Shown here: positions 27,675 through 43,803 of the stretch, in pieces
Numbering within the stretch: the stretch's first letter is position 1
Layout of the letters: each line of letters starts with the position of its first letter
Assembly (NCBI GenBank): GCA_035389185.1
Contig: DAOORK010000001.1
Location: 331,825 to 395,824 of the forward strand
DNA: 64,000 bases
DNA from: Candidatus Woesebacteria bacterium
Lineage (GTDB): Bacteria > Patescibacteriota > Microgenomatia > UBA1400 > MFAQ01
Reading direction: 5' to 3'
Notes under the pieces: generated by a model
What the model was told of the DNA's origin: nothing
Seen by the model: the letters and a program-made list of their open reading frames with translations, nothing else
Databases searched by the model: none
Program-made: the position numbers and the translations under genes

Positions 27675-28437
27675 AATTTAAATCAATATCTATCAGTGAG
27701 TCCATCCACTTTAACTGTTGGGACTTAATTTTTTGGGCTGCTTCGGATTTTTCTGAAAAATAGTTCTCGCTTTCAATGTTGGCTAAATCCTCTTCAGAAA
27801 GAAGGGTGTTGGCCAGTTCGTCTATTGAAGCGTTGATACTTTTCCCAAGTTTTTGCAGATCCTCAATTTTTGTCTTTAAAGGAGTTGATATTGGTGTGGC
27901 AAGTTTTGGCAAAATAATATTAAGGGCGTTATCCATTTCTTGCTGGAAATGAACCAGTAAGGATAGTTTGTAAGCCACGACTCCAGCACGGGAACTGTGA
28001 TCGTGTTCGATAACGTTGGTGTTGTATTCTTGGGTAAAGTTTTTAAGATCGGCTGGGGTAGCAATTGATTGTGACTTTAGAGCTTCATTACTAAAAAAAT
28101 TCTTGGCCTTGGTGAGGGAGAAAATAATAGGGTCGATGTTTTTGTAATTTGCTTTAGTATTTTTTATCAGAGAAAGCAGGTACTCCGCGTAGTTTGATTT
28201 TGCCAGATCTCTGGCGGAAAGAGTTTCTTTGGCTGCCAAAATTGCTTTTTGCTGATTATCTAGTGTGGGGTTACTTATGTAATCGCTTTTAAGTAATTTG
28301 TATTCGATATATTTTCCTCGATAGAGACTATATTGATATTCGTAATCTGATTTGGCATCTGCCAAAACAGTCGTTGTCCCAAAACAAAAAAAGATAGATG
28401 GTAGTATAAGCAAAAGCAGCTTTGAAAAAAGCTTCAT
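27661..28437 (-). CDS. Hypothetical secreted protein
   Basis: 258 aa with a signal peptide (MKLFSKLLLLILPSIFFCFGTTTVLA) and helical composition. Confidence 0.4.
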   Translation of the reverse strand: MKLFSKLLLLILPSIFFCFGTTTVLADAKSDYEYQYSLYRGKYIEYKLLKSDYISNPTLDNQQKAILAAKETLSARDLAKSNYAEYLLSLIKNTKANYKNIDPIIFSLTKAKNFFSNEALKSQSIATPADLKNFTQEYNTNVIEHDHSSRAGVVAYKLSLLVHFQQEMDNALNIILPKLATPISTPLKTKIEDLQKLGKSINASIDELANTLLSEEDLANIESENYFSEKSEAAQKIKSQQLKWMDSLIDIDLNYAHS

Positions 28438-29333
28438 TACTTTAAGGATAACCCCTGACCGATAAGTATTTCAACCACAGTCTGCCAAGCAGAAAAATGA
28501 AGACCCAATTTTTTCTCGGTAGCAACTGTTTTTAGACCGCCAAAAACCGGGTAACGGCTTTTGTTGGTTTGGGTTGCTAGAAAGGTATGGATCGAAGAAG
28601 ATTTGATGACTGAAGGATCACCCCCAAGCTGATCGACCACGTAGGTAATTAATTCAAAGGGAGTTGTGGTATCGGAGCAACAGTGGAAGATACCAGTTTT
28701 TTCTGTATCGATAATTTTTTCCAGTGTCTGGGCAACTTCATCGATGAAGGCAATACAGATTTGCTGGTCATTGAACAGAGGATACATAGTTCCATCGACA
28801 TATTTTTTGACTGCGCCACGAATATAGTCTAGCTTGGCGTCAAACTGGGCACGGACGGGATAAATGATGCGAAGAATTGTACCTCCGTGGTTGAGGACCA
28901 CTTTTTCGGCACGATTTTTGGTCCAACCATACCAAGTGAGATTTTCGGGCGAGTCGGGAGTTTTATCGGTTTCAGAATAAGGACCGGGGTGTTCAACACT
29001 GCCAGGGAAAACCATGTCGGTACTGATGTGAATAATTTTTTTGGAAGGAAAAGCATTGACGAGATTTTCGGTACCTTCAACATTAATTTTCCAAGCGGGG
29101 CCAGTGTTATCCCCTGTTTGAGTTTCTGCGGCATTGACGTCGGTAAAAGCGGCAAAGTTTACAATCCATTCGGGATTAAACTTGTCAATGGCATTTTTAA
29201 CTGAGCTCGGGTCGGTAAGGTCAAATTCCGGATATTCGGGAGTGAAAAAATCGTATTTATTCTGGGCAAGTTCGATAAAGCGAGAACCAACAAGTCCTGA
29301 GGCTCCGGTGACTAAAACTTTTATTTTGTTCAT
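28437..29333 (-). CDS. rfbD: dTDP-4-dehydrorhamnose reductase
   Basis: 298 aa with KVLVTGASGLVGSRF, an NAD(P)-binding Rossmann fold and an HISTDMVF motif. It sits in an rfbABCD cluster. Confidence 0.75.
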   Translation of the reverse strand: MNKIKVLVTGASGLVGSRFIELAQNKYDFFTPEYPEFDLTDPSSVKNAIDKFNPEWIVNFAAFTDVNAAETQTGDNTGPAWKINVEGTENLVNAFPSKKIIHISTDMVFPGSVEHPGPYSETDKTPDSPENLTWYGWTKNRAEKVVLNHGGTILRIIYPVRAQFDAKLDYIRGAVKKYVDGTMYPLFNDQQICIAFIDEVAQTLEKIIDTEKTGIFHCCSDTTTPFELITYVVDQLGGDPSVIKSSSIHTFLATQTNKSRYPVFGGLKTVATEKKLGLHFSAWQTVVEILIGQGLSLK

Positions 29334-29336
29334 AGA

Positions 29337-29900
29337 TTACATCGTTTCCGGTTTGACAAAATCAAAGGAGACTTTTGCCGGATCGATTCGGCATTCTTGA
29401 GTGTCTTCGGTAGCTACAAAGAATTTATCGGTGAAGTAATTGAGAGTGACAGGAGTTGTTGAGGGATTGATAAAGCCGTGGGCTAAGCCGGCAGGAATGT
29501 AAACAAGTTTTTCGGAAGATAGAACGATTTTCATCTGTTTGCCGTAGGTTGGAGAACCGGTACGAAAATCAATTAGACCGAGAAGGATAGTGCCGTTGGT
29601 CGTCCAGATCTCATTCTGGACTGGATGAATATGCCAAAACCGTTGGGTGTAGGGAGCAAGATAAGACATATTACCCTGAACCGGCTTGAACTCAATACCA
29701 AGTTCTTTGAGAGCAAGATTGTTACCTTTTTCGTCGAGTCTGAGGGTTTCTTTGAACCAACCGCCAAAATCATCAGCGAAGGTGTTTAGTTTAAGAATTT
29801 GAACGCCATCAATCATGTCAGCTTTTTCGTAAGTCTGGCAAAAAAGATTGCTGTCTTGAGGAAGAGTAATGTTTTGATATTTTATTGGTTTAAATCCCAT
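29337..29900 (-). CDS. rfbC: dTDP-4-dehydrorhamnose 3,5-epimerase
   Basis: 187 aa with a cupin fold and DDFGGWFKETLR-type RmlC motifs, in the rfb operon. Confidence 0.75.
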   Translation of the reverse strand: MGFKPIKYQNITLPQDSNLFCQTYEKADMIDGVQILKLNTFADDFGGWFKETLRLDEKGNNLALKELGIEFKPVQGNMSYLAPYTQRFWHIHPVQNEIWTTNGTILLGLIDFRTGSPTYGKQMKIVLSSEKLVYIPAGLAHGFINPSTTPVTLNYFTDKFFVATEDTQECRIDPAKVSFDFVKPETM

Positions 29901-29909
29901 TTTGTTTAA

Positions 29910-30908
29910 TTATTTTTTATAAATAGATTCCGATTTTTCTTTAAGAGGCTTCCACCATGCCTCATTTTCTTTATACCACTCGACTGTCTTCTGAAGCCAT
30001 GTGTCGAAGTCGTATTGGGGAGCCCAACCGAGGTCCTTATTAATCTTGGTCCAGTCGACGGCGTAACGGCGGTCGTGACCGGGACGGTCGGTGACAAATT
30101 CGATTTTTTCATCGGGATTCATGCCAAGAAGTGAGATAACCTTCTGAGCGATTTCAAGATTATTTATATCTTCGGTCATACCACCAACACAGTAGGTTGA
30201 ACCGGGTGCGGCGTTGTGAAATACCATATCAATAGCACGGCAATGATCGAGGACATGAAGCCAGTCACGAACATATTTTCCATCACCGTATACTTTGACC
30301 TTTTCACCTGTTAACAAATTGGTGATCATACGAGGCATAAACTTTTCAGGATCTTGGAATGGGCCAAAGTTATTACTGCAGTTAGTGATCGTTACAGGGA
30401 CCCCAAAAGTATCGAAATAAGACCTCACGAGATGGTCTGAAGCGGCTTTGGATGCTGAGTAAGGGCTGTGAGGTTCATAACGAGTTTCTTCGTTGAATTT
30501 ATCTTGGCTATCTAGCGGTAAAGCTCCAAAAACCTCGTCGGTTGAAACATGATGAAACTTTTTGATGCCGTATTTCTTGGCTGCCTCGAGAAGAATTTGG
30601 GTACCGATAATGTTGGTTTTGGTAAAAACAAGGGGATCAAGAATTGAACGGTCAACGTGAGACTCGGCGGCAAAATGGATAATAGCCTCTACTTGAGAGA
30701 CAACTTTGTCGACAGCTACAACATCGGTAATATCCCCTTTCACAAAAGTGTAATGAGGATTATTTTCAACACTTTTGAGAGATTCGAGGTGACCGGCATA
30801 GGTTAGGAGATCAAAGTTTATGATTTCATCTTCAGGATATTTTGCCAGCCAGTATTGGACAAAGTTGGATCCGATAAAACCTGCTCCTCCAGTGACGAGT
30901 ATCTTCAT
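29910..30908 (-). CDS. rfbB: dTDP-glucose 4,6-dehydratase
   Basis: 332 aa with MKILVTGGAGFIGSNFV and a YxxxK catalytic motif (YSASKAASDHLVRSY). Confidence 0.85.
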   Translation of the reverse strand: MKILVTGGAGFIGSNFVQYWLAKYPEDEIINFDLLTYAGHLESLKSVENNPHYTFVKGDITDVVAVDKVVSQVEAIIHFAAESHVDRSILDPLVFTKTNIIGTQILLEAAKKYGIKKFHHVSTDEVFGALPLDSQDKFNEETRYEPHSPYSASKAASDHLVRSYFDTFGVPVTITNCSNNFGPFQDPEKFMPRMITNLLTGEKVKVYGDGKYVRDWLHVLDHCRAIDMVFHNAAPGSTYCVGGMTEDINNLEIAQKVISLLGMNPDEKIEFVTDRPGHDRRYAVDWTKINKDLGWAPQYDFDTWLQKTVEWYKENEAWWKPLKEKSESIYKK

Positions 30909-31991
30909 TTAGAATGTTATTTTACTTAATTCACCGACTAAGACTTCGACCTTGTTCTCAGAACGGGGGTTTTGAGATAGATGAGTACTGGGGCCGATGA
31001 TACTGTCATCGATGTTCTTCTTTATCTTATCAATAATAACGCCTTCCATCAGAACTGAGTCGGTAATGGTTGAGCCGATGACGGTACAGTTGTGATAAAT
31101 AGAGGTAAAAGGACCGATATTGGCGTCGTTGATGATACAGTTGTCACCAATATTGACCGGACCTTTGATAACAGTGTTTTTGATCTCACAGTTCTTGCCG
31201 ACAACGACACGACCGTGAATTTTGACGGTGTCGTCAAGCTTGGAATCGATATTGGTTTTGGTGTTGGCGTCCAAAAGGAACATATTGGCTTCCAACCAGT
31301 CATCAACTTTGCCCGGGTCAAGCCATTCGCCTTTGATTTCGAGAGTGTCGACGCGTTCACCATGGTCAATTAACCACTGAAAGGCTGCGGCAATCTCTAG
31401 TTCTCCTCTTTCCGAAGGTACTATTTTGTCTTTGCCTTTGAAACAATCAAAGATCATATTGTCGAAGAAGTAGACACCAGGGATGGCATAGTCGTGGGGA
31501 GGGTTGGCTGGCTTCTCAACATATTTGATCAATCTGCCTTTTTCATCAAAATAAGGGACACCCAAACGAGTGTTTTCGGGGTGATGGACAATACCGACCA
31601 AACCCTTGGGGCGATGAGTGTTGAAGTGATCGACTAAATTTTCTATTCCTCCATTAAAAATGTTATCTCCGAGGTGAAGAATGAAAGAATCTCCATCAAT
31701 GAAGTCTTCACAGACTTGAAAAATGTTGGCTAAACCTCCAACTGGATTTTCCTGAAGAACATAAGTAAATTTGGCTCCCCATTTTGAGCCATCTCCTAAA
31801 ACAGATTGAACTAACTCTAAACCTCCTGGGTTATAAGTAAAGGCAATTTCTTTTACTCCAGCCTCAAGAACAGCTTCGATGGGATAAAAGATAAGAGGTT
31901 TGTTCCCCACGGGAATCAAGTGCTTATTAGCAGAAAAAGTTAGAGGTCTCATTCTGGTGCCTCTTCCACCGGTTGGGATAATTGCTTTCAT
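30909..31991 (-). CDS. rfbA: Glucose-1-phosphate thymidylyltransferase (long form with C-terminal left-handed beta-helix)
   Basis: 360 aa. MKAIIPTGGRGTRMRPLT is the nucleotidyltransferase signature. The C-terminal hexapeptide-repeat region resembles the ~355-aa RmlA long forms. Confidence 0.75.
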   Translation of the reverse strand: MKAIIPTGGRGTRMRPLTFSANKHLIPVGNKPLIFYPIEAVLEAGVKEIAFTYNPGGLELVQSVLGDGSKWGAKFTYVLQENPVGGLANIFQVCEDFIDGDSFILHLGDNIFNGGIENLVDHFNTHRPKGLVGIVHHPENTRLGVPYFDEKGRLIKYVEKPANPPHDYAIPGVYFFDNMIFDCFKGKDKIVPSERGELEIAAAFQWLIDHGERVDTLEIKGEWLDPGKVDDWLEANMFLLDANTKTNIDSKLDDTVKIHGRVVVGKNCEIKNTVIKGPVNIGDNCIINDANIGPFTSIYHNCTVIGSTITDSVLMEGVIIDKIKKNIDDSIIGPSTHLSQNPRSENKVEVLVGELSKITF

Positions 31992-32022: not shown

Positions 32023-32277
32023 TTACTTTAATAAACCTATAGTTATTATACACCCTAAAAGGGCAAATAGCACGTATTCTAAGACTATTCGTGCATGAAG
32101 TGACTTTTCTTTTGAGTGATGAATGATGGCCCATACTATATATAGTATGGAGTAGCCGATGATGGTAATTTCCTGGTAAAACTTATTTCCATTGAAGTAA
32201 AGAACTGCAATAATGGCAATTGAAGTAAGGATTGCAAGTAAAAGATAGTCTAGGATACTTCTGATCGGTTTTTTCAT
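32023..32277 (-). CDS. Small membrane protein (2 TM)
   Basis: 84 aa, hydrophobic, overlaps the upstream gene's stop. Confidence 0.35.
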   Translation of the reverse strand: MKKPIRSILDYLLLAILTSIAIIAVLYFNGNKFYQEITIIGYSILYIVWAIIHHSKEKSLHARIVLEYVLFALLGCIITIGLLK

Positions 32278-33152
32278 AAGACAATTCCCTGACGGATAAT
32301 AAGAATGATGATGGCAATGCCGGCGAAGTAGGTTAGATGGGCCCAGTTTTTGCCAGAAATACGAATGATGTTGTAGCGAAGAACAAAGAGCCAGTCAAGA
32401 CTGAGAGCAAAGAGAATCAGAATCACAAAGGCCAAAGACCAGGCACGAGAAAGATCCAAAGGAGACAAAACAGACTGTTCGGTGATTGAAGCCGTTTGTA
32501 GCGTGGTATCTGCGATGGTTTGAGTGGTGACAGTATCTTCGGCATAGGCAGTATTAGTTATTTTGGACGAGGCAATTTGGGAGACTGAAGTTTGGGTTGA
32601 ACCAAACATTTGAACTACAAGAGTGGTTTCGACTCCATTAATGGTCCCGTCGACAACGGCAACGCCAATATCTTGGTAACGACCATCAAGAAGATTTTGC
32701 TTGTGGGTTGGCGAAGCCATCCAAGCCCTGACAACATCGGTAGGATTACTAAAATCACGAGCCAGATTTTCCCCGGCGTGTTGGTAACTATAGCCTGAGC
32801 TGTTGATAAAGTACCATGGCTCTGTACCTGTAGGTGAGATGTGAGCCCAGTAATCATGCTCAAACATATCCATGGCTTTGGCGAGGGCGGCTTGGTCCAG
32901 CTGGGCATTTTCTTTTAGGATAGAAAGTCCTGCATTAAGACGTTCGCTATTGGTCAGCTCGATGATTTTGTCCGGATCGATTTGAGAAGCGTAGCCTAAA
33001 ACTCCAGGTTGTAACCCGACAGTAATGTCGATGATAGAACGGCCCATGATAAAAAGACCGATCAAAACAACAATTGATTTTGGCCAAAGAACTTTGGCTT
33101 TATGGTTGTTGTGAGGATGAGGTGCGAAAAGGCTTATGAAGGCGTTGGCCAT
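32274..33152 (-). CDS. CAP/SCP (PR-1-like, YkwD-like) domain protein with C-terminal membrane anchor
   Basis: 292 aa. ELTNSERLNAGL...HDYWAHISPTG...HAGENLARDF...RAWMASPTHKQNLLDGRYQDIGVAV matches CAP-domain motifs. A C-terminal hydrophobic segment follows. Confidence 0.6.
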   Translation of the reverse strand: MANAFISLFAPHPHNNHKAKVLWPKSIVVLIGLFIMGRSIIDITVGLQPGVLGYASQIDPDKIIELTNSERLNAGLSILKENAQLDQAALAKAMDMFEHDYWAHISPTGTEPWYFINSSGYSYQHAGENLARDFSNPTDVVRAWMASPTHKQNLLDGRYQDIGVAVVDGTINGVETTLVVQMFGSTQTSVSQIASSKITNTAYAEDTVTTQTIADTTLQTASITEQSVLSPLDLSRAWSLAFVILILFALSLDWLFVLRYNIIRISGKNWAHLTYFAGIAIIILIIRQGIVL

Positions 33153-33186: not shown

Positions 33187-33762
33187 TTACAATAACCCTG
33201 TTGCGGTGATAACCAAACGCTTGATATCCGTGCCGGGAGGATAACAGGTCATAAGAGTAAGAGTTTTCCCCTGTTTGCTGTTTGCCAAAGACGAGAGATT
33301 CTGAGGGTCAACAATCTCTTTTTTGACGGTCTGGTAGGTATATTTCTGGCCGTGGTAATAAAGAATTACTTCGTCTCCCATTTCGAGCTTGGTGAGCAGA
33401 TAAAAGATGGAGTTGTAACGAGTAGCCAAAAAGAAATCCTCTGATGAGTGAGAAAAAATAAACACATTCCCCTCTTCATCGGGAAGGGCTGAACCTTGCG
33501 CATGGGCAACTCCTTGGGTAAGAGCTTTTTGATAGACTTGAGCGTTGAAGGGATCAACATTGGCAATGACTTTAGCATTGATACCCAACTTGGGAATAAT
33601 AATGCCAAAGTCGGTACTTAGGGGTAGGATTTCTTTTGTCTCAGGTGGTTTGGTCTGGTGGAGTTGATAGATAACCTCGTTTTGGGCAATAGGGAAAAAA
33701 GTCATCACAACAACGGAAATAGCACCCAATACCAATAAAAAACCAAGTATTTTTTTTATCAC
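33187..33762 (-). CDS. Sortase family transpeptidase
   Basis: 191 aa with an N-terminal TM anchor, His in GNVFIFSHSS, catalytic Cys in TLTLMTCYP (TLxTC) and conserved Arg in IKRLVITA. Confidence 0.75.
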   Translation of the reverse strand: MIKKILGFLLVLGAISVVVMTFFPIAQNEVIYQLHQTKPPETKEILPLSTDFGIIIPKLGINAKVIANVDPFNAQVYQKALTQGVAHAQGSALPDEEGNVFIFSHSSEDFFLATRYNSIFYLLTKLEMGDEVILYYHGQKYTYQTVKKEIVDPQNLSSLANSKQGKTLTLMTCYPPGTDIKRLVITATGLL

Positions 33763-33769
33763 AAGACTA

Positions 33770-34699
33770 TTATGAACGTTTTCTGGCTTTTCTGAAGAAA
33801 TAGGCCGAAAGAAGAAGCAGAGGAATGGCTAGCCATTTTAGATTCTTCAATTTATCGGTGCTGATACCGAGGACTGCAGAAGATGAAGCGGACTGAGATT
33901 CGCTGGGGGAAACTGAAACATTAGCTGTCGGTTCTTCTGCTGTGCTGACACCAGCGGCTACTTGAGATCCTGATGTGACAGGAATGGCTGTCTGAGAATT
34001 AATTGTCGTGGTAGTTCCGGTAGTAATTACTGTGGTGAAACTGTCGCCGACAATTCCGGAAACGTTTCCATAGTTATCAACAGCTCTTATCGCGTAAAAG
34101 TACTCTTTACCGCAAGTGGGAATACTGTTAGTGATTTCACCGGTTGTGTCTGGAACAATTGACTGGGAAGAAATAAAATGATCCGAATTAATACTGATGG
34201 AATTTGTGTCAGACCTATAAAGCTCAATTTTAGTTGTTCTTCCGTCGTTGGCTGTTTTGAATTTTATTTTGTAATCACAGTCATTAATTTTTTCTTTCGA
34301 GTAGGAAACAGGAGCACTTGGACCGGAGGTATTAAAATCAATGGAGACAATATTACTTTCTTTGACGCCATTGGCAACCACCTTAAAAGAATAAGCACCG
34401 ATTGTATTTAAAATGGTGTTATCGACGCTGCAGTAGTCGGTATTTCCACCAGGAATCAAGGAAATATCTTGGAACTTAACATAGTCACTGTCTGAAGGAG
34501 ACTTTTTGAAACAACTGACGGCGATATTGTCTGTTCCGCCAATTTCGAGAGCCACAAAAGTAAGCTTTAAATTACTTTGATTGGTAGGTGTCTTGGGCTG
34601 ACCCAATCTAACCGTAAGTGCGTTGGCTGCTTGGGAAGTGATCGGGAAACTCAAAGCGATAGCGCAGAAACTAGCGAGAACAAATATTTTTAATTTCAT
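33770..34699 (-). CDS. Secreted Ig/FN3-like surface protein with C-terminal TM anchor and basic tail (no canonical LPXTG)
   Basis: 309 aa with a signal peptide and beta-rich repeats. The C-terminus ...LKNLKWLAIPLLLLSAYFFRKARKRS resembles a sorting-signal architecture. It lies immediately downstream of the sortase. Confidence 0.45.
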   Translation of the reverse strand: MKLKIFVLASFCAIALSFPITSQAANALTVRLGQPKTPTNQSNLKLTFVALEIGGTDNIAVSCFKKSPSDSDYVKFQDISLIPGGNTDYCSVDNTILNTIGAYSFKVVANGVKESNIVSIDFNTSGPSAPVSYSKEKINDCDYKIKFKTANDGRTTKIELYRSDTNSISINSDHFISSQSIVPDTTGEITNSIPTCGKEYFYAIRAVDNYGNVSGIVGDSFTTVITTGTTTTINSQTAIPVTSGSQVAAGVSTAEEPTANVSVSPSESQSASSSAVLGISTDKLKNLKWLAIPLLLLSAYFFRKARKRS

Positions 34700-37293
34700 T
34701 TACTTTTGGATGATCTTAGTAATTTAATACCCATCGTGAGACCAATCATGGCGAGAATTATCCAGTAAGTGGAAGCACCTGTAGCGGGTAGAGTTGTCGT
34801 TGCGCCGAGGACTTCTCCAATTTTAGTTTCTTTCTTTTCAACGTCGTAGGTATCATCTTTTGTCTGCGATTTGACGACGTTGACTTCTGTACCAACGAAG
34901 TTTTCGGCAATGAATTTTGAATCAACACCTGAAGCATAGATGTCTTCATTAGCAACGGCCCAAGCAAGGTCGGTATAAAGACCAGGGTCTTGGGATGAAC
35001 TGATGTCGGCGGTATAGGTAAGAATTACATCAGCGCCTTCCGGGACATCACCAAGGCTCCAAGTTCCTGGTGAGTGATATGTTGGTTCAGAAATAGTGAC
35101 TGGAAGACCATTTACTGTGGCATGATATGAACCTATACGGTAGACAAAGCCTGAAGGCAATAAATCTTCGACTGTCAAACTATTGGCTTGGGCAGACGAG
35201 ACGTGGAGTTTGATAATGAAGTTTACAGAACTACCAGGAGTTTTGTCAGTTGAGGCATCGTTGGACTTACTAATAGTGAGTGTGGGGTTGTATTCACACG
35301 CTTCTTCATCACTGTAGGTAGTTGATGTCACCTCTTCATAATTATTGGCTGTTTCATCAGTACACACCGGAGTTTTGTCGTGACACTCGTTGTCGTTGCC
35401 AAGGTACTGTATCTCTGTACAATCTGGGGTAGGTTCAACACAGTGATTATTTAGAGTCGGTTGATCACCGTAGGCAGAGATTGCATCACCATTTTTGGCA
35501 GTGAAAGCCGGCCAGATGTCGTCCGAGTGACCGCCATGGCCACTAAGCCAATCTATGGCTGAAGCGACTGAGTTTATGGAAACGTCCTGTTCATTGTAGT
35601 CGTGACTGGAGTTTTCACTGGTGGCATGACAGATTGTGACTTTGCTTTCAGTTTGACAACTTGAATCACAGCCGTCGCCATCAATTACGTTTCCGTCGTC
35701 ACAGTATTCCTCTGATTGAATATAGCCGTCGCCAGATGAAGCAATTTCGCAGGCATTTGTACATGAATCAGTGTTTACAGTATTACCGTCATCACATGAC
35801 TCATCACCTTGAGCAAAACCATCACCACAGACTATGGCGTCACAAGCATTGCCGATACCATCGCCATCATCGTCTTGCTGGTTTGAGTTGGCAACGCTGG
35901 CACAGTTGTCACAAACATTGCCTAACATATCGTTGTCGGAATCACTCTGATCTGGATTGGCGGTTGAACGACAGTTATCACACACATCGCCGATACCGTC
36001 AGAATCAGAGTCTGATTGATCTGAGTTGGCAACGCTGGCACAGTTGTCATCACTGTCACAGATACCATCCTCATCGCGATCATTACAAGGAGGAGTGTAA
36101 GTATTGGTGAAAGTACAAACAACCGATTCGTTGGCCTTGAGAACAATGGAGATATTGGGGGAAGCGTTTTTATTCCAACTGGAACTGGAGTTTGCTCCAG
36201 TACAGGAGACACCGGTGAGAGCCCAACCAGAAGCAGGGGCGTCTTCAGTGAAGGTATAAGTACCTGTAGCTATATCACTGAATGTTTGTGAACCGGTATT
36301 GCTTGAAGTTGTGATCGTAAAAGGGGAGATACCGCCGGTTGCGGTAATTCCGAAAGAACCATCGGAATCGACAGTGTTTTTAATTATTTTTATTGAACCT
36401 TTTGGAGATGAAATGGTAATGGTATCTGAACAAGTATTATTTGATTCGTCTCCTTCGATTATGTTGTTTCCTGAATCAACGTTACAGACGCCGCCGGTTT
36501 TGGGGTTTGTATACATGCCTGAGGCGGTAGCTGTGACATTGAAAGATACCGTGAGATAACTCGATGGATTGAAGACCACATGTTTGTCGTTTTTGACCTT
36601 ACAGGTAAGGACTTTTGAACTAATGGAGCAAATCAAATCATTTTCGTGATCGATGTTGTTGTGGACAGAAATATATGGTGTTCCATATGTGAGACCACTG
36701 ATTGGTAGTTCATCGGTAATAACGACTTCATTCTCGTTAAAACGGGCGTCTGCTGATCCAATATTAGTTACTTTTAGACTCCAGATAAAGGTTTGATTAA
36801 TAGAACCTGTTGAACTTACTAGATTATTTGTTTTTTCAATCTTTAGGTCGCTTGGAGCTTTGCATCCGTTTGCCAAGAAAGCCTGATTGTAAGTTGTGTC
36901 GTAATTTTTACCAGGATATGAACAAGAACCATAAGTGTAGCTTGGAATAATGTCATCATCATGAGTTCCATGACCATTGACACTTTCACATTTTGAAATC
37001 GAGTTAATACTTACTGGGTTTTCTGTATATTTTCCACCTTGCCCTTCGTCCCAGTGGCAGATAGTGATATTTGTATTGGGAATTGATGGAGTATCAGTAA
37101 AAGTAGTGGAGGCAACAGTGGTATCTGTGGAATCAGTAACAACGATAGCATAGTCTGGGCGGTATTCTCCAAGAAGAGGAAGGAAGTACATGAATGAACC
37201 AGCTTCGTCAGTAACCACATTTTCGGCATTGGAATAGTTATCGGTTTCGGAAGTTACTGTGGAAGTGTAAGGGGTGTTGGCAAGAAAAAACAT
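34696..37293 (-). CDS. LPXTG-anchored cell-surface protein with thrombospondin type 3-like Ca-binding Cys/Asp repeats (main ORF; the N-terminus is separated by a frameshift)
   Basis: 865 aa. The C-terminal LPATGASTYWIILAMIGLTMGIKLLRSSKSK is an LPXTG motif followed by a TM helix and a basic tail. Internal repeats DSDDNCASVANSDQSDSDSDGIGDVCDNC... and CDDGN Cys-rich repeats are present. There is no signal peptide at the listed Met. The frame stays open upstream to 37575. Confidence 0.75.
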   Translation of the reverse strand: MFFLANTPYTSTVTSETDNYSNAENVVTDEAGSFMYFLPLLGEYRPDYAIVVTDSTDTTVASTTFTDTPSIPNTNITICHWDEGQGGKYTENPVSINSISKCESVNGHGTHDDDIIPSYTYGSCSYPGKNYDTTYNQAFLANGCKAPSDLKIEKTNNLVSSTGSINQTFIWSLKVTNIGSADARFNENEVVITDELPISGLTYGTPYISVHNNIDHENDLICSISSKVLTCKVKNDKHVVFNPSSYLTVSFNVTATASGMYTNPKTGGVCNVDSGNNIIEGDESNNTCSDTITISSPKGSIKIIKNTVDSDGSFGITATGGISPFTITTSSNTGSQTFSDIATGTYTFTEDAPASGWALTGVSCTGANSSSSWNKNASPNISIVLKANESVVCTFTNTYTPPCNDRDEDGICDSDDNCASVANSDQSDSDSDGIGDVCDNCRSTANPDQSDSDNDMLGNVCDNCASVANSNQQDDDGDGIGNACDAIVCGDGFAQGDESCDDGNTVNTDSCTNACEIASSGDGYIQSEEYCDDGNVIDGDGCDSSCQTESKVTICHATSENSSHDYNEQDVSINSVASAIDWLSGHGGHSDDIWPAFTAKNGDAISAYGDQPTLNNHCVEPTPDCTEIQYLGNDNECHDKTPVCTDETANNYEEVTSTTYSDEEACEYNPTLTISKSNDASTDKTPGSSVNFIIKLHVSSAQANSLTVEDLLPSGFVYRIGSYHATVNGLPVTISEPTYHSPGTWSLGDVPEGADVILTYTADISSSQDPGLYTDLAWAVANEDIYASGVDSKFIAENFVGTEVNVVKSQTKDDTYDVEKKETKIGEVLGATTTLPATGASTYWIILAMIGLTMGIKLLRSSKSK

Positions 37294-37400
37294 ACCGGCT
37301 ATCTGAACCGTGTCGGTCGGAGCATAGTCGGCTTTGTCTGTGGTGACAGTTGGCTCGTTGGATGTATTTTCTGCGGGAGGAGAGTTGTTTTTAACTTCTT

Positions 37401-37636
37401 CCGGAGTTGGTTCTACTGTTGGGGTAGCTTCGGGGGTTATCTCGGGAGTAATTTCCGGAGTTATCTCAGGTGTTACTTCGGGAGTTGGAGAAACCTCGGG
37501 AGTTGGATCAATTGTAGGAGTAGCTTCCGGAGTTATTTCCGGAGTTGGTTCTACTGTTGGGGTAGCTTCGGGGGGTTATCTCGGGAGTAATTTCCGGAGT
37601 TATCTCAGGTGTCACTTCGGGAGTTGGAGAAACCTC
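37401..37636. repeat. Imperfect tandem direct repeat (two ~97-bp copies, period ~138 bp) encoding a TPE[IV]TPE repeat; copy 2 carries G6 where copy 1 has G5
   Basis: Copy 1 (37401..37497) and copy 2 (37539..37636) are identical by direct comparison except for one extra G (37570..37575 versus 37432..37436) and a T/C change. Confidence 0.8.
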
Positions 37637-37765
37637 AACTACAGCCGCAGGTGTGGCGTCTTCGGCATACACCGGTAGTGCAACAAAAAATGGGGTAAAA
37701 GATTGAAAGAGAAGACTAAAAGAAGAAATAAACGAAAATATTTTCCTTACTTTATGGTGCTTCAT
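37508..37765 (-). CDS. Signal-peptide-bearing N-terminal fragment of the LPXTG surface protein (out of frame with the main ORF)
   Basis: 85 aa. MKHHKVRKIFSFISSFSLLFQSFTPFFVALPVYA is a signal peptide, followed by TPEVTPEITPEITPEITP. The frame leaves the repeat exactly at the G6 tract; removing one G fuses it in-frame to the 865-aa ORF. Confidence 0.65.
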   Translation of the reverse strand: MKHHKVRKIFSFISSFSLLFQSFTPFFVALPVYAEDATPAAVVEVSPTPEVTPEITPEITPEITPRSYPNSRTNSGNNSGSYSYN

Positions 37766-37841
37766 TTGTTTTTTGGCATTAATACCTATTCAGCTTATAT
37801 TAAGCTATCTGAGGCGTATTGTACTGTTTAATACAGTTTTG

Positions 37842-38165
37842 TCAACAGGGTCTTTTTGTGATAGATGGAGGTGAAGAATAGATGGGTTCGACAGGGGTGG
37901 CAGAACCGTTTACATCGATATCCAGAGCGAGACTTAAAGCATTTGCTATTGAGACACCGACACGAGTACCGGTAAAAGATCCGGGGCCAGGATTGACTTC
38001 AATATCGGTGATGTCTTCCGGCTTTTTGTTTTCTTTTTCGAGACAACCGACCAGAAAACCAAAAACGTCTTGATCTCGTGGTGAGTCGACTTTTCTCACG
38101 TACTCTCGATCGTTTATACGGATAATTGTTTGAGTATTTTGGGTTGAGTCAATATAGAGTTTCAT
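37842..38165 (-). CDS. tsaB: tRNA threonylcarbamoyladenosine biosynthesis protein TsaB (short form)
   Basis: 107 aa. A conserved GPGSFTGTRVGVSIANALS motif (YeaZ/TsaB N-domain) is present. It lies adjacent to tsaE. Confidence 0.6.
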   Translation of the reverse strand: MKLYIDSTQNTQTIIRINDREYVRKVDSPRDQDVFGFLVGCLEKENKKPEDITDIEVNPGPGSFTGTRVGVSIANALSLALDIDVNGSATPVEPIYSSPPSITKRPC

Positions 38166-38599
38166 TTGTGTTCGATGATTTTTATCACTCTTTCATTTTC
38201 GCCGTTGGCTTTGAAAAAGATGTCGAAACGTTTTTGGGGAAGAATATCGGCCAGCTTTTCCGGCCACTCAATGATCAGAATGTTTGATGGATCTGACCAA
38301 ATTTCTTCGATATCAAAGGCTCTGATTTCTTCTACAGAGTTTAGACGATACAGATCGAGATGGTAGAAGGTCTTTATTGTCGGATGATTAGCAACAGGGT
38401 ATTGGCGCATGATGATGAAAGTAGGAGATACGACCCTATCGATACCAAAATACTTTCCGATTCCTTGTGAAAAAGTGGTTTTGCCGGCAGCCAAGTCACC
38501 ATAAAGACAGATGGTTGTTCCCCTTTCCAAAATCGAGGCGATTTTTTCAGCTATTTCTCTTGTTTCTTCGTAAGAAGTGGAGATGTAAGTCTCTTCCAT
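38162..38599 (-). CDS. tsaE: tRNA threonylcarbamoyladenosine biosynthesis ATPase TsaE
   Basis: 145 aa with the Walker A motif YGDLAAGKTTFSQGI, typical of YjeE/TsaE. Confidence 0.75.
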   Translation of the reverse strand: MEETYISTSYEETREIAEKIASILERGTTICLYGDLAAGKTTFSQGIGKYFGIDRVVSPTFIIMRQYPVANHPTIKTFYHLDLYRLNSVEEIRAFDIEEIWSDPSNILIIEWPEKLADILPQKRFDIFFKANGENERVIKIIEHK

Positions 38600-38940
38600 A
38601 GTTTGAATTTTACAATTAAATAAGAAAGAAAAATCATACCGAGGGAGTCGATGGCCACATCACGAAGAAGACCGGTGCGTCCGGGAACAAATAGTTGATG
38701 AGCTTCATCTGTAAAGGCATAGGCCAAGGAAAGCATAAAAGCATAGGCTGGGGATTTTTTGTCTAAAGCACGATACCAAAGTAAGAATAAAATCGAGTAC
38801 TCAAGAACATGAGCTGTTTTTTTGATAAGAAAATCTAGAACATAGACCTCGTTTGAAGGAAGGTCGGGAAAAGAAGAGATAATAAAGATTGCAGCCATCC
38901 ATAGGAGAGCAGGGATAAATTTTGAGATTTTTTGGAGCAT
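38551..38940 (-). CDS. VanZ family membrane protein
   Basis: 129 aa with four TM helices. The KTAHVLEYSILFLL...DEAHQLFVPGRTGLLRDVAID motifs match the VanZ-like family. Confidence 0.6.
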   Translation of the reverse strand: MLQKISKFIPALLWMAAIFIISSFPDLPSNEVYVLDFLIKKTAHVLEYSILFLLWYRALDKKSPAYAFMLSLAYAFTDEAHQLFVPGRTGLLRDVAIDSLGMIFLSYLIVKFKLWKRLTSPLLTKKQEK

Positions 38941-38949
38941 TAGGATATT

Positions 38950-39783
38950 TTAATCATTTCGGTGACGAAAATATAGCCAAGATCCGGAAGTGAGTAGTAA
39001 GAACACCCCAAAGAAAAAGAAATATTTACTATTTACAGGGTTGTTTTTTCTGACCGCTGGGGAAGTAGCTTCAACAAAAATTGATGGAGATGTATCCACA
39101 ACGACTGACTCGGTGGCAATCCCTAAGACATCCGGTGTCAAAGAGGATGAAACCGACGAGATTTTTGGGGTGCTGGTTGGGGCAGGAGTAATCTTAATAG
39201 TAGCTTTTGTGGGTGTTTTTATGGGTGTAGGAGTGTTGGTAGGAGTGGGTGTCGGAGACGATGTGGGGGTCGCCGTAGGAGTGTTGGTTGAAGTTGGAGT
39301 AGGAGTTGGAGTATCAGTCGGAGTAACAACAACTTCTGAGATTTCAACTGAAAGGGTGTTGTCTGACTCTCCCGCCGAAGAAGTGCTATTGCCGGTGTAA
39401 CGTTTTAGTTTGAGAATGTATGTTCCCGGACCAAGATAATCTGAGTCGTCCGGATCGTTTGTAAAAAGAATTTTTATTTTTTGGTCGTTTTCCAGTTTAA
39501 TAAAGTTTTCAGTAATAAATTCTTTTTCCGGTGAAGAAATGTAGTTTATCCACTCCCCTTTTTGACTCCACATTTTCCCGAAATAGTGAGGATCTCCTGG
39601 AGCGGTGAGAACCGTTTGGACAAAACATGAAGAGGAAGAGGCAAGCCCACTAACAAGAGCTTCGACAGAATAGAAGCTATCACTTTTTTCGACATTGGAA
39701 ATGGTGAGAGAAATGGCGGCTGATGCCACCTTTGGAAAGACGCAAAAACACAGTAGAAACAGCACGGGCAGGATTTGTTTCAC
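38950..39783 (-). CDS. Secreted Thr/Pro-rich surface protein with C-terminal membrane anchor
   Basis: 277 aa with a signal peptide, a folded N-domain, a ~60-aa TPTxTP linker (TPTDTPTPTPTSTNTPTATPTSSPTPTPTNTPTP...) and a C-terminal hydrophobic segment with an RHRND tail. Confidence 0.55.
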   Translation of the reverse strand: MKQILPVLFLLCFCVFPKVASAAISLTISNVEKSDSFYSVEALVSGLASSSSCFVQTVLTAPGDPHYFGKMWSQKGEWINYISSPEKEFITENFIKLENDQKIKILFTNDPDDSDYLGPGTYILKLKRYTGNSTSSAGESDNTLSVEISEVVVTPTDTPTPTPTSTNTPTATPTSSPTPTPTNTPTPIKTPTKATIKITPAPTSTPKISSVSSSLTPDVLGIATESVVVDTSPSIFVEATSPAVRKNNPVNSKYFFFFGVFLLLTSGSWLYFRHRND

Positions 39784-40995: not shown

Positions 40996-42201
40996 TTAAT
41001 TAACCGTAACCTTATCGAAACGGAAAATTTGAGAGGTACTATATGTATCTGAAAACTTTTTATCGTAACCGTTTTCCATATAAGGATCGTTCATTATGTA
41101 GCCATCACCATTCTTTCCTTTGATGACTATAAAGTGGGTACCATAGCCAGTATTGAGTCCGGCAATAATCGGCCGGCCGGCATTGAGTTCGTTATCAACG
41201 GCATCGCTGGACATTCCTTGCTGTCTGTTTACTGTTACGCCGTTTACAGTCCAGCTGCCAGCATTCATATAAGCAGTGGAAGGGAAAAATGGATTTGTAC
41301 TTGCAGCAATATCAGATGGTTTAATATTTTTTCCATAATGAGAAGCAATCATGGCAGTTGAAGTAATTAAACAACCGACTCTTCCCACAGTTTCGCGAGA
41401 GTTACCAATAATTTGAGAGAACCATATTGAGTCTCTTTGACTGTAATAACATCCCCAACCATCACAGTGAGTCTGATTGCTTAAAGGAGTTGCTCCTGAC
41501 GTAAAACCTCTCATAGCGGCAACCAAAGCACTGGCTTGAGCTAACAATGTCTGGTATCTCTTTTCATCATTTTGGGTGAGAATTAGAACCTTTTGTTTCT
41601 CGGCTTGCTGGGCGTTAAGAGTGTTCTTCTGGGCAACAAGTTTTGCTTTTAATGCCTCAACTTCTTTTTGTTTGGCAACTTTATCTGTTTTTCTTTGATC
41701 ATAATCAAGTCTGGATTTTTCCAGCTCGGCCAGTATTAGCTGGTCTTTTGTTTTGATGGTATTTAGATACTTTACTTTATTGAAGTAGTCCCCGATTGAG
41801 TCGGAAGAAAAAATTAAATCGAATGAAGTCACACGTGTCTGTTTGTAACTCTCACGAACACGGGCTAAATAAATTTTTTCTAACTGATCCATGGAGTCAG
41901 TAACGGTTTCGAGTACCCCATCAAGAACATCAACTTCTTTTTCGAGTGTTTTTATCTGAGCTTGAGTTCGATTTATCTGAGCTTGGGCGAGGTTAATTTT
42001 GGAATTTAAAGTAGTTATTGTTTGTTTGAGAGTGGCCTGACTTGATTGATTGGCTGAGATACTCGATTCACAAGCTTTTATAAAATCATCTAGCTGGTCT
42101 GAAGAAATACTTTGGGGGTCGGCGTCACAAGTTGTGGCAAAAACATTCTTTGGGATCAAAAAAATGATGCATACCAGAAGTAGGGTGACTTTCCATTTCA
42201 T
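40996..42201 (-). CDS. Secreted coiled-coil protein with C-terminal papain-like cysteine peptidase domain (C39-like/CHAP-like); putative FtsEX-regulated peptidoglycan hydrolase (PcsB/CwlO analogue)
   Basis: 401 aa with a signal peptide, ~220 aa of Q/K/E-rich heptad-like coiled coil, then a domain with candidate catalytic Cys (VGCLITSTAMIASHYG) and His (GTHFIVIKG). It lies directly downstream of ftsX-ftsE. Confidence 0.6.
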   Translation of the reverse strand: MKWKVTLLLVCIIFLIPKNVFATTCDADPQSISSDQLDDFIKACESSISANQSSQATLKQTITTLNSKINLAQAQINRTQAQIKTLEKEVDVLDGVLETVTDSMDQLEKIYLARVRESYKQTRVTSFDLIFSSDSIGDYFNKVKYLNTIKTKDQLILAELEKSRLDYDQRKTDKVAKQKEVEALKAKLVAQKNTLNAQQAEKQKVLILTQNDEKRYQTLLAQASALVAAMRGFTSGATPLSNQTHCDGWGCYYSQRDSIWFSQIIGNSRETVGRVGCLITSTAMIASHYGKNIKPSDIAASTNPFFPSTAYMNAGSWTVNGVTVNRQQGMSSDAVDNELNAGRPIIAGLNTGYGTHFIVIKGKNGDGYIMNDPYMENGYDKKFSDTYSTSQIFRFDKVTVN

Positions 42202-43109
42202 TTTGAACGATTTACAAACCTGGTGGCTGCGAAGAGACTAGATAAGAAAGAGATTAGCAAGCCAAAGACAAGCATACCTCCAAATAAAATCAGGATGTAA
42301 GTGAAGGGTATGGGAAATGAAATTATGGAACCAATCCTGGGGGCCAAAAATGGGGTTGAGTAAAGAACAATAATAAAACACCCTAGCCAGCCTACGATGG
42401 AACCAATAAGACCATAAACGATCGACTCCTGAAGATAGGGTTTGATAATGTACATATTTTTTGCACCCATTAGCTTGAAGGTACTGATTTCAAATCTTCT
42501 TGAAGATATCTTCATGGAAATAGTCGCCATAATAGTGAGAATCGCAACGAGAGTGAGAGCAATGACTAAAGCAAGACCGCCAATTCGAATTGCATTGGTC
42601 CACTTTGTGAGCTCGGTGATAACGTCTTGGGGGTAATCGATTTCTTTATTCCCTTGGGGTGTGACGCTGACAATATCGCTTTTTTCCAAAGTGACAGCAA
42701 TCGACTTGAAGGCATCGGGATTGGTAGCGGTAATCTCGACACTAGCAGGCAAAATGTCGGCGGTAACAATACCCCAATCGGTGACTGTACCTAGTAAAAC
42801 CGGATCATTACCAACACTTTCTTTGTAGAGTTTGAGTGCGTCTTCTTTACTTATGTAAACCGCTTTTTTGACACCTTCGGTGGTGTTTAGAGAACTTATT
42901 AATCCGCCAACCTGCTCAGTTGTGTGTCCGTCTTTGAGATAAGCGATTATTTGGGGACGGGTTTCAAAGTTGTTGAGTATCTGCTGGGAAGCAACCGTGA
43001 CCAGAGAAAATATGCCGACAATAAAAATGGTAAGACTAACAATAAAAATGGCAGATAAGGCCTGATATGGAGAACGGCGAATGTTTCTGATGGCAGTTTT
43101 CATGATCAT
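42198..43109 (-). CDS. ftsX: Cell division ABC transporter permease FtsX
   Basis: 303 aa with TM1, a large extracytoplasmic loop and three C-terminal TM helices. It is coupled to ftsE. Confidence 0.8.
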   Translation of the reverse strand: MIMKTAIRNIRRSPYQALSAIFIVSLTIFIVGIFSLVTVASQQILNNFETRPQIIAYLKDGHTTEQVGGLISSLNTTEGVKKAVYISKEDALKLYKESVGNDPVLLGTVTDWGIVTADILPASVEITATNPDAFKSIAVTLEKSDIVSVTPQGNKEIDYPQDVITELTKWTNAIRIGGLALVIALTLVAILTIMATISMKISSRRFEISTFKLMGAKNMYIIKPYLQESIVYGLIGSIVGWLGCFIIVLYSTPFLAPRIGSIISFPIPFTYILILFGGMLVFGLLISFLSSLFAATRFVNRSK

Positions 43110-43110
43110 A

Positions 43111-43803
43111 TTAGTCTTTTACCTCTTTTTTATCGAGAGGATGGTCTTCCTCTTTAACTATCTTACCTTTTTGCAAATGGATATGGCGTCCTTGGTTGAG
43201 GTTGATCAAAGTGACATCGTGTGTGGCCATAATGACCGTGGTACCAGCCGAGTTTATTTTTTTGAGAAGATCAAAAATGTCTAGTGAGGTTTCTTTATCT
43301 AGGTTGCCTGTAGGTTCATCAGCAAATAAAATTTTGGGATCTCCAGCAATAGCACGAGCAATCGAAGCTCTTTGTATTTCTCCGCCGGAAAGCTGTCCCG
43401 GAAAAAGATTTTCTTTTCCTGAAAGACCAACTAATTCCAGTATGTGTTTTACTTTTTCAGGGATTTTTTCGGCTTCGTAACCAGAAATTTCAAGAGACAC
43501 AATAATATTCTCACCAACAGTTTTGTCGGGAATCATTCTGAAATCTTGGAAGGCAAAACCGATTTTGCGACGAAGTAGGGGAATATTTTGGGGTTTGATT
43601 TTGGTGAGATCTTCGCCATCAACGACAATTTTGCCTTTATCAGGTATAAGGTCATGTATAAGGAGACGACCGATCGTAGTTTTTCCTGCTCCAGATTTGC
43701 CGGTGATAATGACGAATTCTCCTGGAGACACAGAAAAATCGATGTCGTCTAGAACTACATCTCCGTTGGGATATGATTTGGTGACATGGATATAGTCGAT
43801 CAA
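43111..43803 (-). CDS. ftsE: Cell division ATP-binding protein FtsE
   Basis: 230 aa with Walker A GKSGAGKTT, ABC signature LSGGEIQR and Walker B ILFADEPTGNLD. Confidence 0.85.
   Translation of the reverse strand: MIDYIHVTKSYPNGDVVLDDIDFSVSPGEFVIITGKSGAGKTTIGRLLIHDLIPDKGKIVVDGEDLTKIKPQNIPLLRRKIGFAFQDFRMIPDKTVGENIIVSLEISGYEAEKIPEKVKHILELVGLSGKENLFPGQLSGGEIQRASIARAIAGDPKILFADEPTGNLDKETSLDIFDLLKKINSAGTTVIMATHDVTLINLNQGRHIHLQKGKIVKEEDHPLDKKEVKD

Follow-up and report, generated by a model that had tools for sequence, protein, structure and literature searches.

A probable Microgenomates operon combining an LPXTG adhesin and its sortase with a membrane protein of fibronectin type III domains

We analyzed a sortase locus in a window of 64,000 nucleotides (nt) from Candidatus Woesebacteria (contig DAOORK010000001.1, assembly GCA_035389185.1, positions 331,825 to 395,824), to which all coordinates refer unless another record is named. 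Its sequence is identical to that of a contig in the Candidatus Woesebacteria genome GCA_029561095.1. On the minus strand, the locus encodes a large adhesin with an LPATG sorting signal, a protein of 309 amino acids (p309) and a sortase, and farther 5' a Thr/Pro-rich protein of 277 amino acids (p277). We found that the adhesin and the sortase belong to the known LPXTG/sortase system. The locus as a whole is probably best explained as a conserved operon of the Microgenomates, in which a promoter is followed by the genes for the adhesin, for p309 as a membrane protein with fibronectin type III (FN3) domains, and for the sortase. Comparison with relatives shows a fixed three-part sortase module with an undescribed middle component, and a sorting signal that extends beyond LPXTG and is frequently internal to a polyprotein.

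The main open reading frame (ORF) of the adhesin (34696-37293, minus strand, 865 aa as called), p309 (33770-34699, minus) and the sortase (33187-33762, minus, 191 aa) are transcribed in this order, with the sortase last, and the start of p309 overlaps the stop of the adhesin by 4 nt. About 50 nt 5' of the adhesin start codon lies a promoter-like site (37818..37845, minus; TTGACA, 16 nt, TACAAT), which is a consensus match only, at 11 of 12 positions. We compared the gene order at 34 genome loci of relatives (20-kb), which come from Collier-, Gottesman-, Davies- and Levybacteria, WWE3 and others. The order adhesin, p309, sortase is kept in 33 of them, with the sortase directly 3' of p309. The junction between adhesin and p309 could be measured in 26 loci, the window counted; in 23 of these it lies between -8 and +2 nt, the exceptions being -41, -32 and +16 nt. 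In several of the genome loci both proteins form a single ORF. The gene overlap (4 or 8 nt) together with the frequent fusion identifies p309 as a partner protein dedicated to the display of the adhesin, although its exact role there we can only infer.

A first-pass annotation of this DNA had described the sortase as followed by p309 and by the LPATG protein. The four ORFs lie at the coordinates it gave, and the C-termini it quoted for p309 and p277 are exact, but the order is the reverse of transcription. The LPATG protein is present as described, but its ORF of 865 aa is only the 3' part of the gene, the 5' end of which lies beyond a frameshift at a run of six C (C6).

A profile search with p309 over 1.84 billion cluster representatives yielded 876 relatives, and 144 new top hits were examined. 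Ninety-four of these are long (430-3052 aa) and carry the p309 module at the C-terminus. In 90 of the 94, an internal VLG..LPxTG, a transmembrane segment, a basic loop and a second, signal-like transmembrane segment stand directly before the p309 module. An independent metagenome scan, seeded on DNA encoding VLGA(S/T)T-x-LPxTG, gave 119 loci, 97 of them with enough downstream sequence. The p309 module is located downstream of the sorting signal in 79 of these 97 loci, 37 of the 79 being fused in frame, and a sortase is also present in 52 of the 60 loci with at least 2.1 kb of downstream sequence. Representative sets over-count diverse long proteins, and the fused fraction (roughly half in the metagenome scan) is to be read as approximate. 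The presence of p309 modules downstream of adhesin sorting signals that had served as the seed indicates a partner protein dedicated to this signal. In many organisms, the predicted sorting signal is internal to a longer polypeptide.

The adhesin ORF of the window ends in ...VLGATTTLPATGASTYWIILAMIGLTMGIKLLRSSKSK and has the layout of an LPXTG signal, namely LPATG-ASTYWIILAMIGLTMGIKLL-RSSKSK, the pentapeptide of which is found in all 27 orthologues. The signal is extended upstream: the segment encoded at 34696..34812 (minus) consists of VLGATT-T-LPATG, a hydrophobic segment of 20 residues, RSSKSK and the stop codon, with GEVLGATTTLPATGAS as the peptide that spans VLG and LPATG. This VLGA(S/T)T-x-LPxTG layout is kept in 26 of the 27 orthologous adhesins. 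The 70-residue tail as a homologue query returned a single candidate, which was uninformative. The domains of the protein comprise SpaA_4 prealbumin-like, CARDB-like and thrombospondin type 3 domains as well as Cys-rich DUF4215 repeats.

The signal peptide of the adhesin, MKHHKVRKIFSFISSFSLLFQSFTPFFVALPVYA, is encoded together with the first Thr-Pro-Glu repeats in a separate ORF (37508-37765, minus), and intact orthologous adhesins start alike, for example with MKSRNIRKIISFISSFNLLLQSF in L002. The C6 run (37570-37575, minus) lies inside the Thr-Pro-Glu repeats and causes a +1 frameshift, owing to which the signal peptide of the window adhesin sits on a separate ORF from the LPATG tail; the orthologues are intact. 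The paralogous repeat copy at 37432-37436 is C5, and removal of one C from the C6 run gives an uninterrupted ORF of 1022 aa, from 37765 to 34696, with a signal peptide. The run is either an assembly error or a variable (phase-variable) homopolymer. The source record also misses the 5' part of the adhesin.

The sortase matches the Pfam family Sortase (PF04203) with 85.2 bits against a cut-off of 26.6 and TIGR01076 with 61.4 bits against 39.35, and it carries an N-terminal transmembrane anchor (residues 1-25). At each of the positions of the His (F.HSS), the Cys (TLMTC.P.GT) and the downstream Arg, at least 90% of 36 orthologues agree. None of the NCBIfam class cut-offs is reached by the sortase (class C, 62.4 of 160 bits; SrtD, 58.8 of 140; D, 55.6 of 165; E, 46.8 of 160; GN, 35.9 of 158; class F, 16.8 of 166), and there is no class A or B match. 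Its orthologues, as well as a second sortase type described below, are equally far below these cut-offs. The best PDB sequence matches are class C enzymes, with a weak E-value of about 1e-8 and an alignment that covers the catalytic positions. Judged from the sequence, the approximately 25 residues between the transmembrane anchor and the first strand (~residue 50) leave no room for a class C lid, and a DPF at 70-72 aligns within the catalytic domain, outside any lid.

For p309, we found 86 homologues at E<=1e-3 with a length of about 305-330 aa. All informative source names and record titles place them in Microgenomates or allied lineages of the Candidate Phyla Radiation (CPR). The confident AlphaFold model, built on 65 homologues, shows two FN3 beta-sandwich domains at residues 28-122 and 132-226 (per-residue confidence, pLDDT, >90), a disordered, Ser/Thr-rich stalk of about 55 residues (228-282) and a C-terminal transmembrane helix (287-308); residues 1-24 are predicted to form a signal peptide of the cleavable type. 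The protein ends in ...LKNLKWLAIPLLLLSAYFFRKARKRS, with SAVLGISTDKLKNLKW as tail peptide, and its C-terminal anchor (33770..33841, minus) consists of LKWLAIPLLLLSAYFF followed by RKARKRS and the stop codon and has no LPXTG. An LPXTG-like pentapeptide at a distance of up to about 25 residues from the hydrophobic segment at the C-terminus was found in none of 85 homologues and in none of the 144 further representatives. Conservation of the family is lowest in the C-terminal region, at 1.7-2.0 bits per column versus 2.8-3.1 in the FN3 domains, and many relatives differ from sorting signals by the length of their transmembrane segments and by long, acidic cytoplasmic tails. In 222 of 230 p309 modules, fused ones included, position -1 still carries the Ala typical of signal-peptidase sites.

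The gene for p277 (38950-39783, minus, GTG start) lies 5' of the adhesin cassette only in the Collierbacteria/Woesebacteria clade. Its product has 154 homologues at E<=1e-3, ends in ...KYFFFFGVFLLLTSGSWLYFRHRND and has a C-terminal anchor (38950..39027, minus) of KYFFFFGVFLLLTSGSWLYF, RHRND and the stop codon, again with no LPXTG; by the same test, an LPXTG-like pentapeptide was found in 0 of 103 homologues that have a C-terminal transmembrane segment. The AlphaFold model is confident and contains a signal peptide, one beta-sandwich at 25-148 (pLDDT >94) and a helix at 253-276, with a Pro/Thr linker at 150-250, and Foldseek gave weak, generic Ig V-like matches only. Conservation of the tail ...LLYFRHRKD is confined to the Collierbacteria/Woesebacteria clade; elsewhere, the transmembrane segment and an often long acidic tail vary freely. 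A VanZ-family membrane protein is encoded 9 nt 3' of p277 (38551..38940, minus), and a VanZ gene is also located directly 3' of p277 in L004, L006, L010 and L035. Additionally, in P0118, a protein of 410 aa from a metagenome, p277 is fused to VanZ, and VanZ lies beyond the transmembrane segment of p277 itself, which fits a permanent anchor. We treat p277 as a type I membrane protein that is independent of the operon and paired with VanZ. The GenBank gene calls of the source record miss p277 and place a 136-aa ORF on the opposite strand (38990-39400, plus) in its Pro/Thr-coding region.

Because homologues are plentiful and the AlphaFold models are confident, p309 and p277 are not chance ORFs. 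Both have the predicted layout of type I membrane proteins, that is a signal peptide, extracytoplasmic beta-sandwich domains, a C-terminal transmembrane helix and a basic tail, and we consider it likely that both stay in the membrane as such.

The tails of the adhesin, p309 and p277 share the motif (V/I)LGxxT. In the window it occurs as EVLGATT-T-LPATG in the adhesin, as AVLGIST in p309 (VLGIST in the stalk, 33857..33874, minus, 10 residues before the hydrophobic segment) and as DVLGIAT in p277 (VLGIAT in the stalk, 39112..39129, minus, about 28 residues before the hydrophobic segment). In place of a whole-genome survey, we surveyed motif and tails in the ORFs of the window and the 34 related loci, which amount to 205,082 residues. 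The strict motif pattern occurs 45 times versus 0.88 expected, and 44 of the 45 occurrences are in tails before a transmembrane segment. The shorter [VI]LG is present in the tails of 82 of 85 p309, 83 of 103 p277 and 26 of 27 adhesin sequences, compared to 5%, 1.4% and 8.5%, respectively, after shuffling. In substrates, 0-2 residues separate the motif from the pentapeptide that follows it. p309 and p277 have the motif without a pentapeptide, sometimes doubled, at a distance of 7-75 and 5-57 residues, respectively, from the transmembrane segment.

A second sortase cassette with the motif was found in L015 (4955-6147), L016 (1899-3297) and L019 (11774-13091). Its substrate is a small secreted Cys-rich protein (...CPECTQAP...) with a C-terminal region of GQVLGAST-(F/DY)A(G/K)TG or QVLGATG, a hydrophobic segment and a basic tail, in this order, and it is followed by a different sortase of ~190 aa that fits no class. 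Other families end in VLGASTxLPRTG, a transmembrane segment and a basic tail and have a sortase within about 3 kb, without a p309 module (metagenome loci L047, L057, L078, L127 and L049, L070, L076, L149). The motif precedes the pentapeptide in at least three sortase systems. By these comparisons, (V/I)LGxxT is a lineage-wide upstream element of predicted sorting signals, which accompanies LPXTG rather than replacing it. Most likely, it serves as a short recognition element for a common envelope factor, for which the sortase is one candidate. We found no mention of the motif in the literature on sortases of CPR, Patescibacteria or Microgenomates or on non-canonical sorting signals.

These results also bear on what the first-pass annotation had made of p309 and p277. 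It had called p309 Ig-like, which has to be replaced by a tandem FN3 protein. Its observation that both proteins have a hydrophobic segment and a basic tail but no LPXTG is borne out by the sequence, and of the two explanations it had offered, simple C-terminal membrane anchoring is better supported: there is no conserved juxtamembrane pentapeptide, and the C-terminal region is the least conserved. The long transmembrane segments and acidic tails of relatives and the p277-VanZ fusion favour anchoring as well. The other explanation, a divergent recognition motif, finds no support in the form given. A conserved, lineage-specific (V/I)LGxxT does exist upstream of the anchors, but in the true substrates this element sits beside LPXTG instead of replacing it, and in p309 and p277 its distance from the membrane varies widely, between 5 and 75 residues.

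We propose that the adhesin would be exported by Sec and held in the membrane by VLGA(S/T)T-x-LPATG, the hydrophobic segment and the basic tail. By analogy with the sortase/LPXTG paradigm, the His-Cys-Arg sortase would then cleave LPAT|G and join the adhesin to an envelope amine. p309 would not be a sortase substrate; its signal peptide would be cleaved, and the stop-transfer helix and basic tail would retain it permanently in the membrane. It would be synthesized in a constant ratio to the adhesin and next to the sorting signal of the latter. In a fused ORF, the sorting signal of the adhesin and the signal peptide of p309 may form a two-helix membrane hairpin, from which signal peptidase and sortase would release two products.

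Several observations weigh against this proposal. The adhesin gene of the window is frameshifted, so that the operon is perhaps not fully functional in this genome. One p309 relative (L021, 9959-10933) has LPQTG before its anchor and an RRSRK tail. LPQTG is the pentapeptide of the neighbouring adhesin, close relatives of this protein have APVAG or APSSG there, and it is the only LPXTG tail among about 290 p309 relatives. We rejected recombination as its origin, as the two tails are alike in nothing beyond the pentapeptide. In Collierbacteria and Woesebacteria, moreover, p309 has a short anchor, ~15 hydrophobic residues with one conserved Pro, in which conservation is high, at 3.1-3.2 bits, and the tail is laid out like the adhesin signal, with VLGxxT-S, five residues, a hydrophobic segment and basic residues; a degenerate or specialised sorting signal fits this layout as well as a plain anchor does. 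That the motif is conserved although the stalks around it are disordered implies that some factor recognizes it, and the proteins may be processed at the motif or close to it. Finally, it is from sequence that we infer the cleavage and attachment of the adhesin and the membrane retention of p309 and p277.

Were such processing to occur, p309 and p277 could be true sortase substrates with non-canonical cleavage at or just after (V/I)LGxxT. This would agree with the strong enrichment of the motif in both tails, with its being part of true sorting signals in at least three substrate/sortase pairs, with the sorting-signal layout of the Collierbacteria/Woesebacteria p309 tail, and with L015 4955-5620 and P0327, in which VLGATG or VLGAATG stands directly before the hydrophobic segment and no LPXTG is present. 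We nevertheless regard it as very unlikely, given that the adhesin would carry two cleavage sites, that the motif is 5 to 75 residues away from the membrane and sometimes doubled, and that the conserved Thr is position 5 of L-G-x-x-T versus position 4 in LPxTG, position 4 of the motif being variable. The long transmembrane segments and long acidic tails of many relatives, and the ability of p277 to continue into VanZ past its transmembrane segment, argue in the same direction. That the motif is unrelated to the sortase and marks an O-glycosylation sequon or a shedding-protease site in surface-protein stalks seems doubtful to us. It does lie in Ser/Thr/Pro-rich disordered stalks, can repeat and occurs in proteins without a pentapeptide, and the window encodes, within 33 kb, at least five PMT-type GT-C glycosyltransferases as well as rhamnose-synthesis genes. 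However, the fixed spacing of 0-2 residues to the pentapeptide across three cassettes points to one continuous recognition element rather than to a separate modification site, and no link to a particular transferase or protease was found. There is only a very slim chance that the tails are tags of another C-terminal sorting system of the exosortase, archaeosortase or rhombosortase type. Their layout of motif, transmembrane segment and basic cluster, and the high conservation of ...LLYFRHRKD of p277 in one clade, would suit such a system, but no NCBIfam C-terminal sorting-domain model matches p309 or p277 at E<=0.01, tails of each type belong to a single orthologous family throughout the window and the 34 loci, no candidate processing enzyme was found nearby, and the tails diverge freely outside the Collierbacteria/Woesebacteria clade.

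A further explanation assigns p309 a part in the sortase reaction itself, namely as a membrane-embedded acceptor or base: the adhesin-LPAT acyl intermediate would be resolved on an amine of p309, instead of or besides peptidoglycan, and the adhesin would be tethered to the membrane via the p309 stalk, in keeping with p309 as a stable transmembrane protein. Candidate amines are K135 in the interdomain linker P..P..Y-S-K-E, K36 in the EPK(S/T)PT loop and the new N-terminus. Overlap and fusion imply that p309 and adhesin are produced side by side in fixed proportion, the sortase adjoins in 33 of 34 loci, and the long stalk of p309 could span the wall. K135 is Lys-specific, with Lys in 223 of 230 modules and Arg in 4, while basic positions near it swap freely between Lys and Arg; we take its Y-S-K to recall Y-P-K in pilin motifs. 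That class C polymerases are the best, albeit weak, matches of the sortase also fits. Against an acceptor, the fold of p309 is FN3 and not that of a CnaA/CnaB pilin, an exact pilin motif is missing from p309, the sortase leaves no space for a class C lid, and a conserved Lys has many other possible roles. We also rejected the mature N-terminus as a Gly-type nucleophile, as the residue at +1 of the signal-peptidase site (Ala 42%, Gly 9%) shows only the usual Ala preference. In addition, other VLGAST-LPxTG substrates have a sortase and no p309, so that such sortases do not generally depend on a p309-type acceptor. We hold p309 as acceptor to be unlikely. In its most elaborate form, the sortase would join the LPAT of the adhesin to an amine of p309, with K135 as best candidate, and produce a two-protein fibre anchored by the p309 helix; in fused genes, the hairpin would be excised and the halves rejoined in a sortase-driven protein splicing, and VLGxxT would dock the sortase on both. 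This form we consider quite unlikely.

The adhesin and the sortase resemble the paradigm of LPXTG sorting by SrtA of Staphylococcus aureus in the pentapeptide, hydrophobic segment and basic tail of the substrate and in the enzyme, which belongs to PF04203/TIGR01076, has His-Cys-Arg and an N-terminal membrane anchor. In contrast to the paradigm, the sortase described here fits no curated class, the signal is extended upstream by VLGA(S/T)T and internal in many relatives, and a conserved non-substrate membrane protein is encoded between substrate and enzyme genes. Operons for SpaA-type pili encode a tip adhesin, pilins, among them a basal pilin as terminator, and a class C sortase. The locus is similar in that SpaA-like prealbumin domains occur in its large adhesin, which is encoded together with a small Ig-like protein and a sortase, in that class C enzymes are the best, if weak, matches of this sortase, and in that p309 has a conserved Lys-specific position in its interdomain linker. 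It differs in that p309 is FN3 and not CnaA/CnaB, has no LPXTG and no exact YPKN and ends in a permanent transmembrane anchor, and in that the sortase is without a lid segment. In Actinobacteria, SafA is a small membrane factor encoded beside the housekeeping sortase, which it protects from signal peptidase. Both SafA and p309 are membrane proteins that are not substrates of the sortase with which they are genetically associated. p309, however, carries its two FN3 domains on a long stalk, and overlap or fusion links it more tightly to the substrate gene than to the sortase. C-terminal tags are also known to be paired with dedicated enzymes, as in PEP-CTERM/exosortase and GlyGly-CTERM/rhombosortase (PMC3237569). 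The secreted proteins p309 and p277 resemble these tags in a short motif, a transmembrane segment and a basic cluster at the C-terminus, but no model matches, there is one family per tail, the distance from motif to transmembrane segment is variable, and the motif also accompanies LPXTG.

Microgenomates are ultra-small and probably episymbiotic, and we know of nothing reported on the display of giant adhesins by them. In the literature on sortases of CPR, Patescibacteria and Microgenomates and on internal LPXTG, we found no description of an FN3 membrane partner, an extended signal or an internal signal, and only general statements that sortases are common in Microgenomates. They have been described as almost universal in this group (PMC6744442). 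For genome annotation, an internal signal means that LPXTG finders restricted to C-termini miss such substrates. The upstream VLG element may provide a binding site in addition to the pentapeptide, which could be of use in sortase engineering, and the module bears on how the CPR cell envelope is built.

Directly 3' of the sortase, the window encodes a CAP/YkwD-domain protein with C-terminal transmembrane segments (32274..33152, minus). Its membership in the operon is uncertain, and its position is kept only in the Collierbacteria/Woesebacteria clade. Together with an 84-aa membrane protein, it occupies window positions 32023-33152, an arrangement seen in this clade and not in other clades.

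Beside the sortase operon lies a dense glycosylation region (1364-23493 and 28437-31991) with at least five GT-C enzymes of the PMT/PMT_2 type and several GT2 enzymes. Its genes for a nucleotidyltransferase and for enzymes of the epimerase, RmlD and dTDP-sugar isomerase types resemble a rhamnose-synthesis set. This region might act on Ser/Thr-rich stalks. The region 40996-43803 encodes FtsE and FtsX and, after this pair, a PcsB-like protein that combines a coiled coil and a C39-like peptidase domain. This suggests a divisome-linked wall hydrolase and hence a peptidoglycan wall. Many cassette-bearing GenBank genome records (L002, L007, L008, L009, L013, L016 and others) are titled 'uncultured Pseudomonadales' or 'Gammaproteobacteria', labels that look wrong for a Microgenomates-type cassette.

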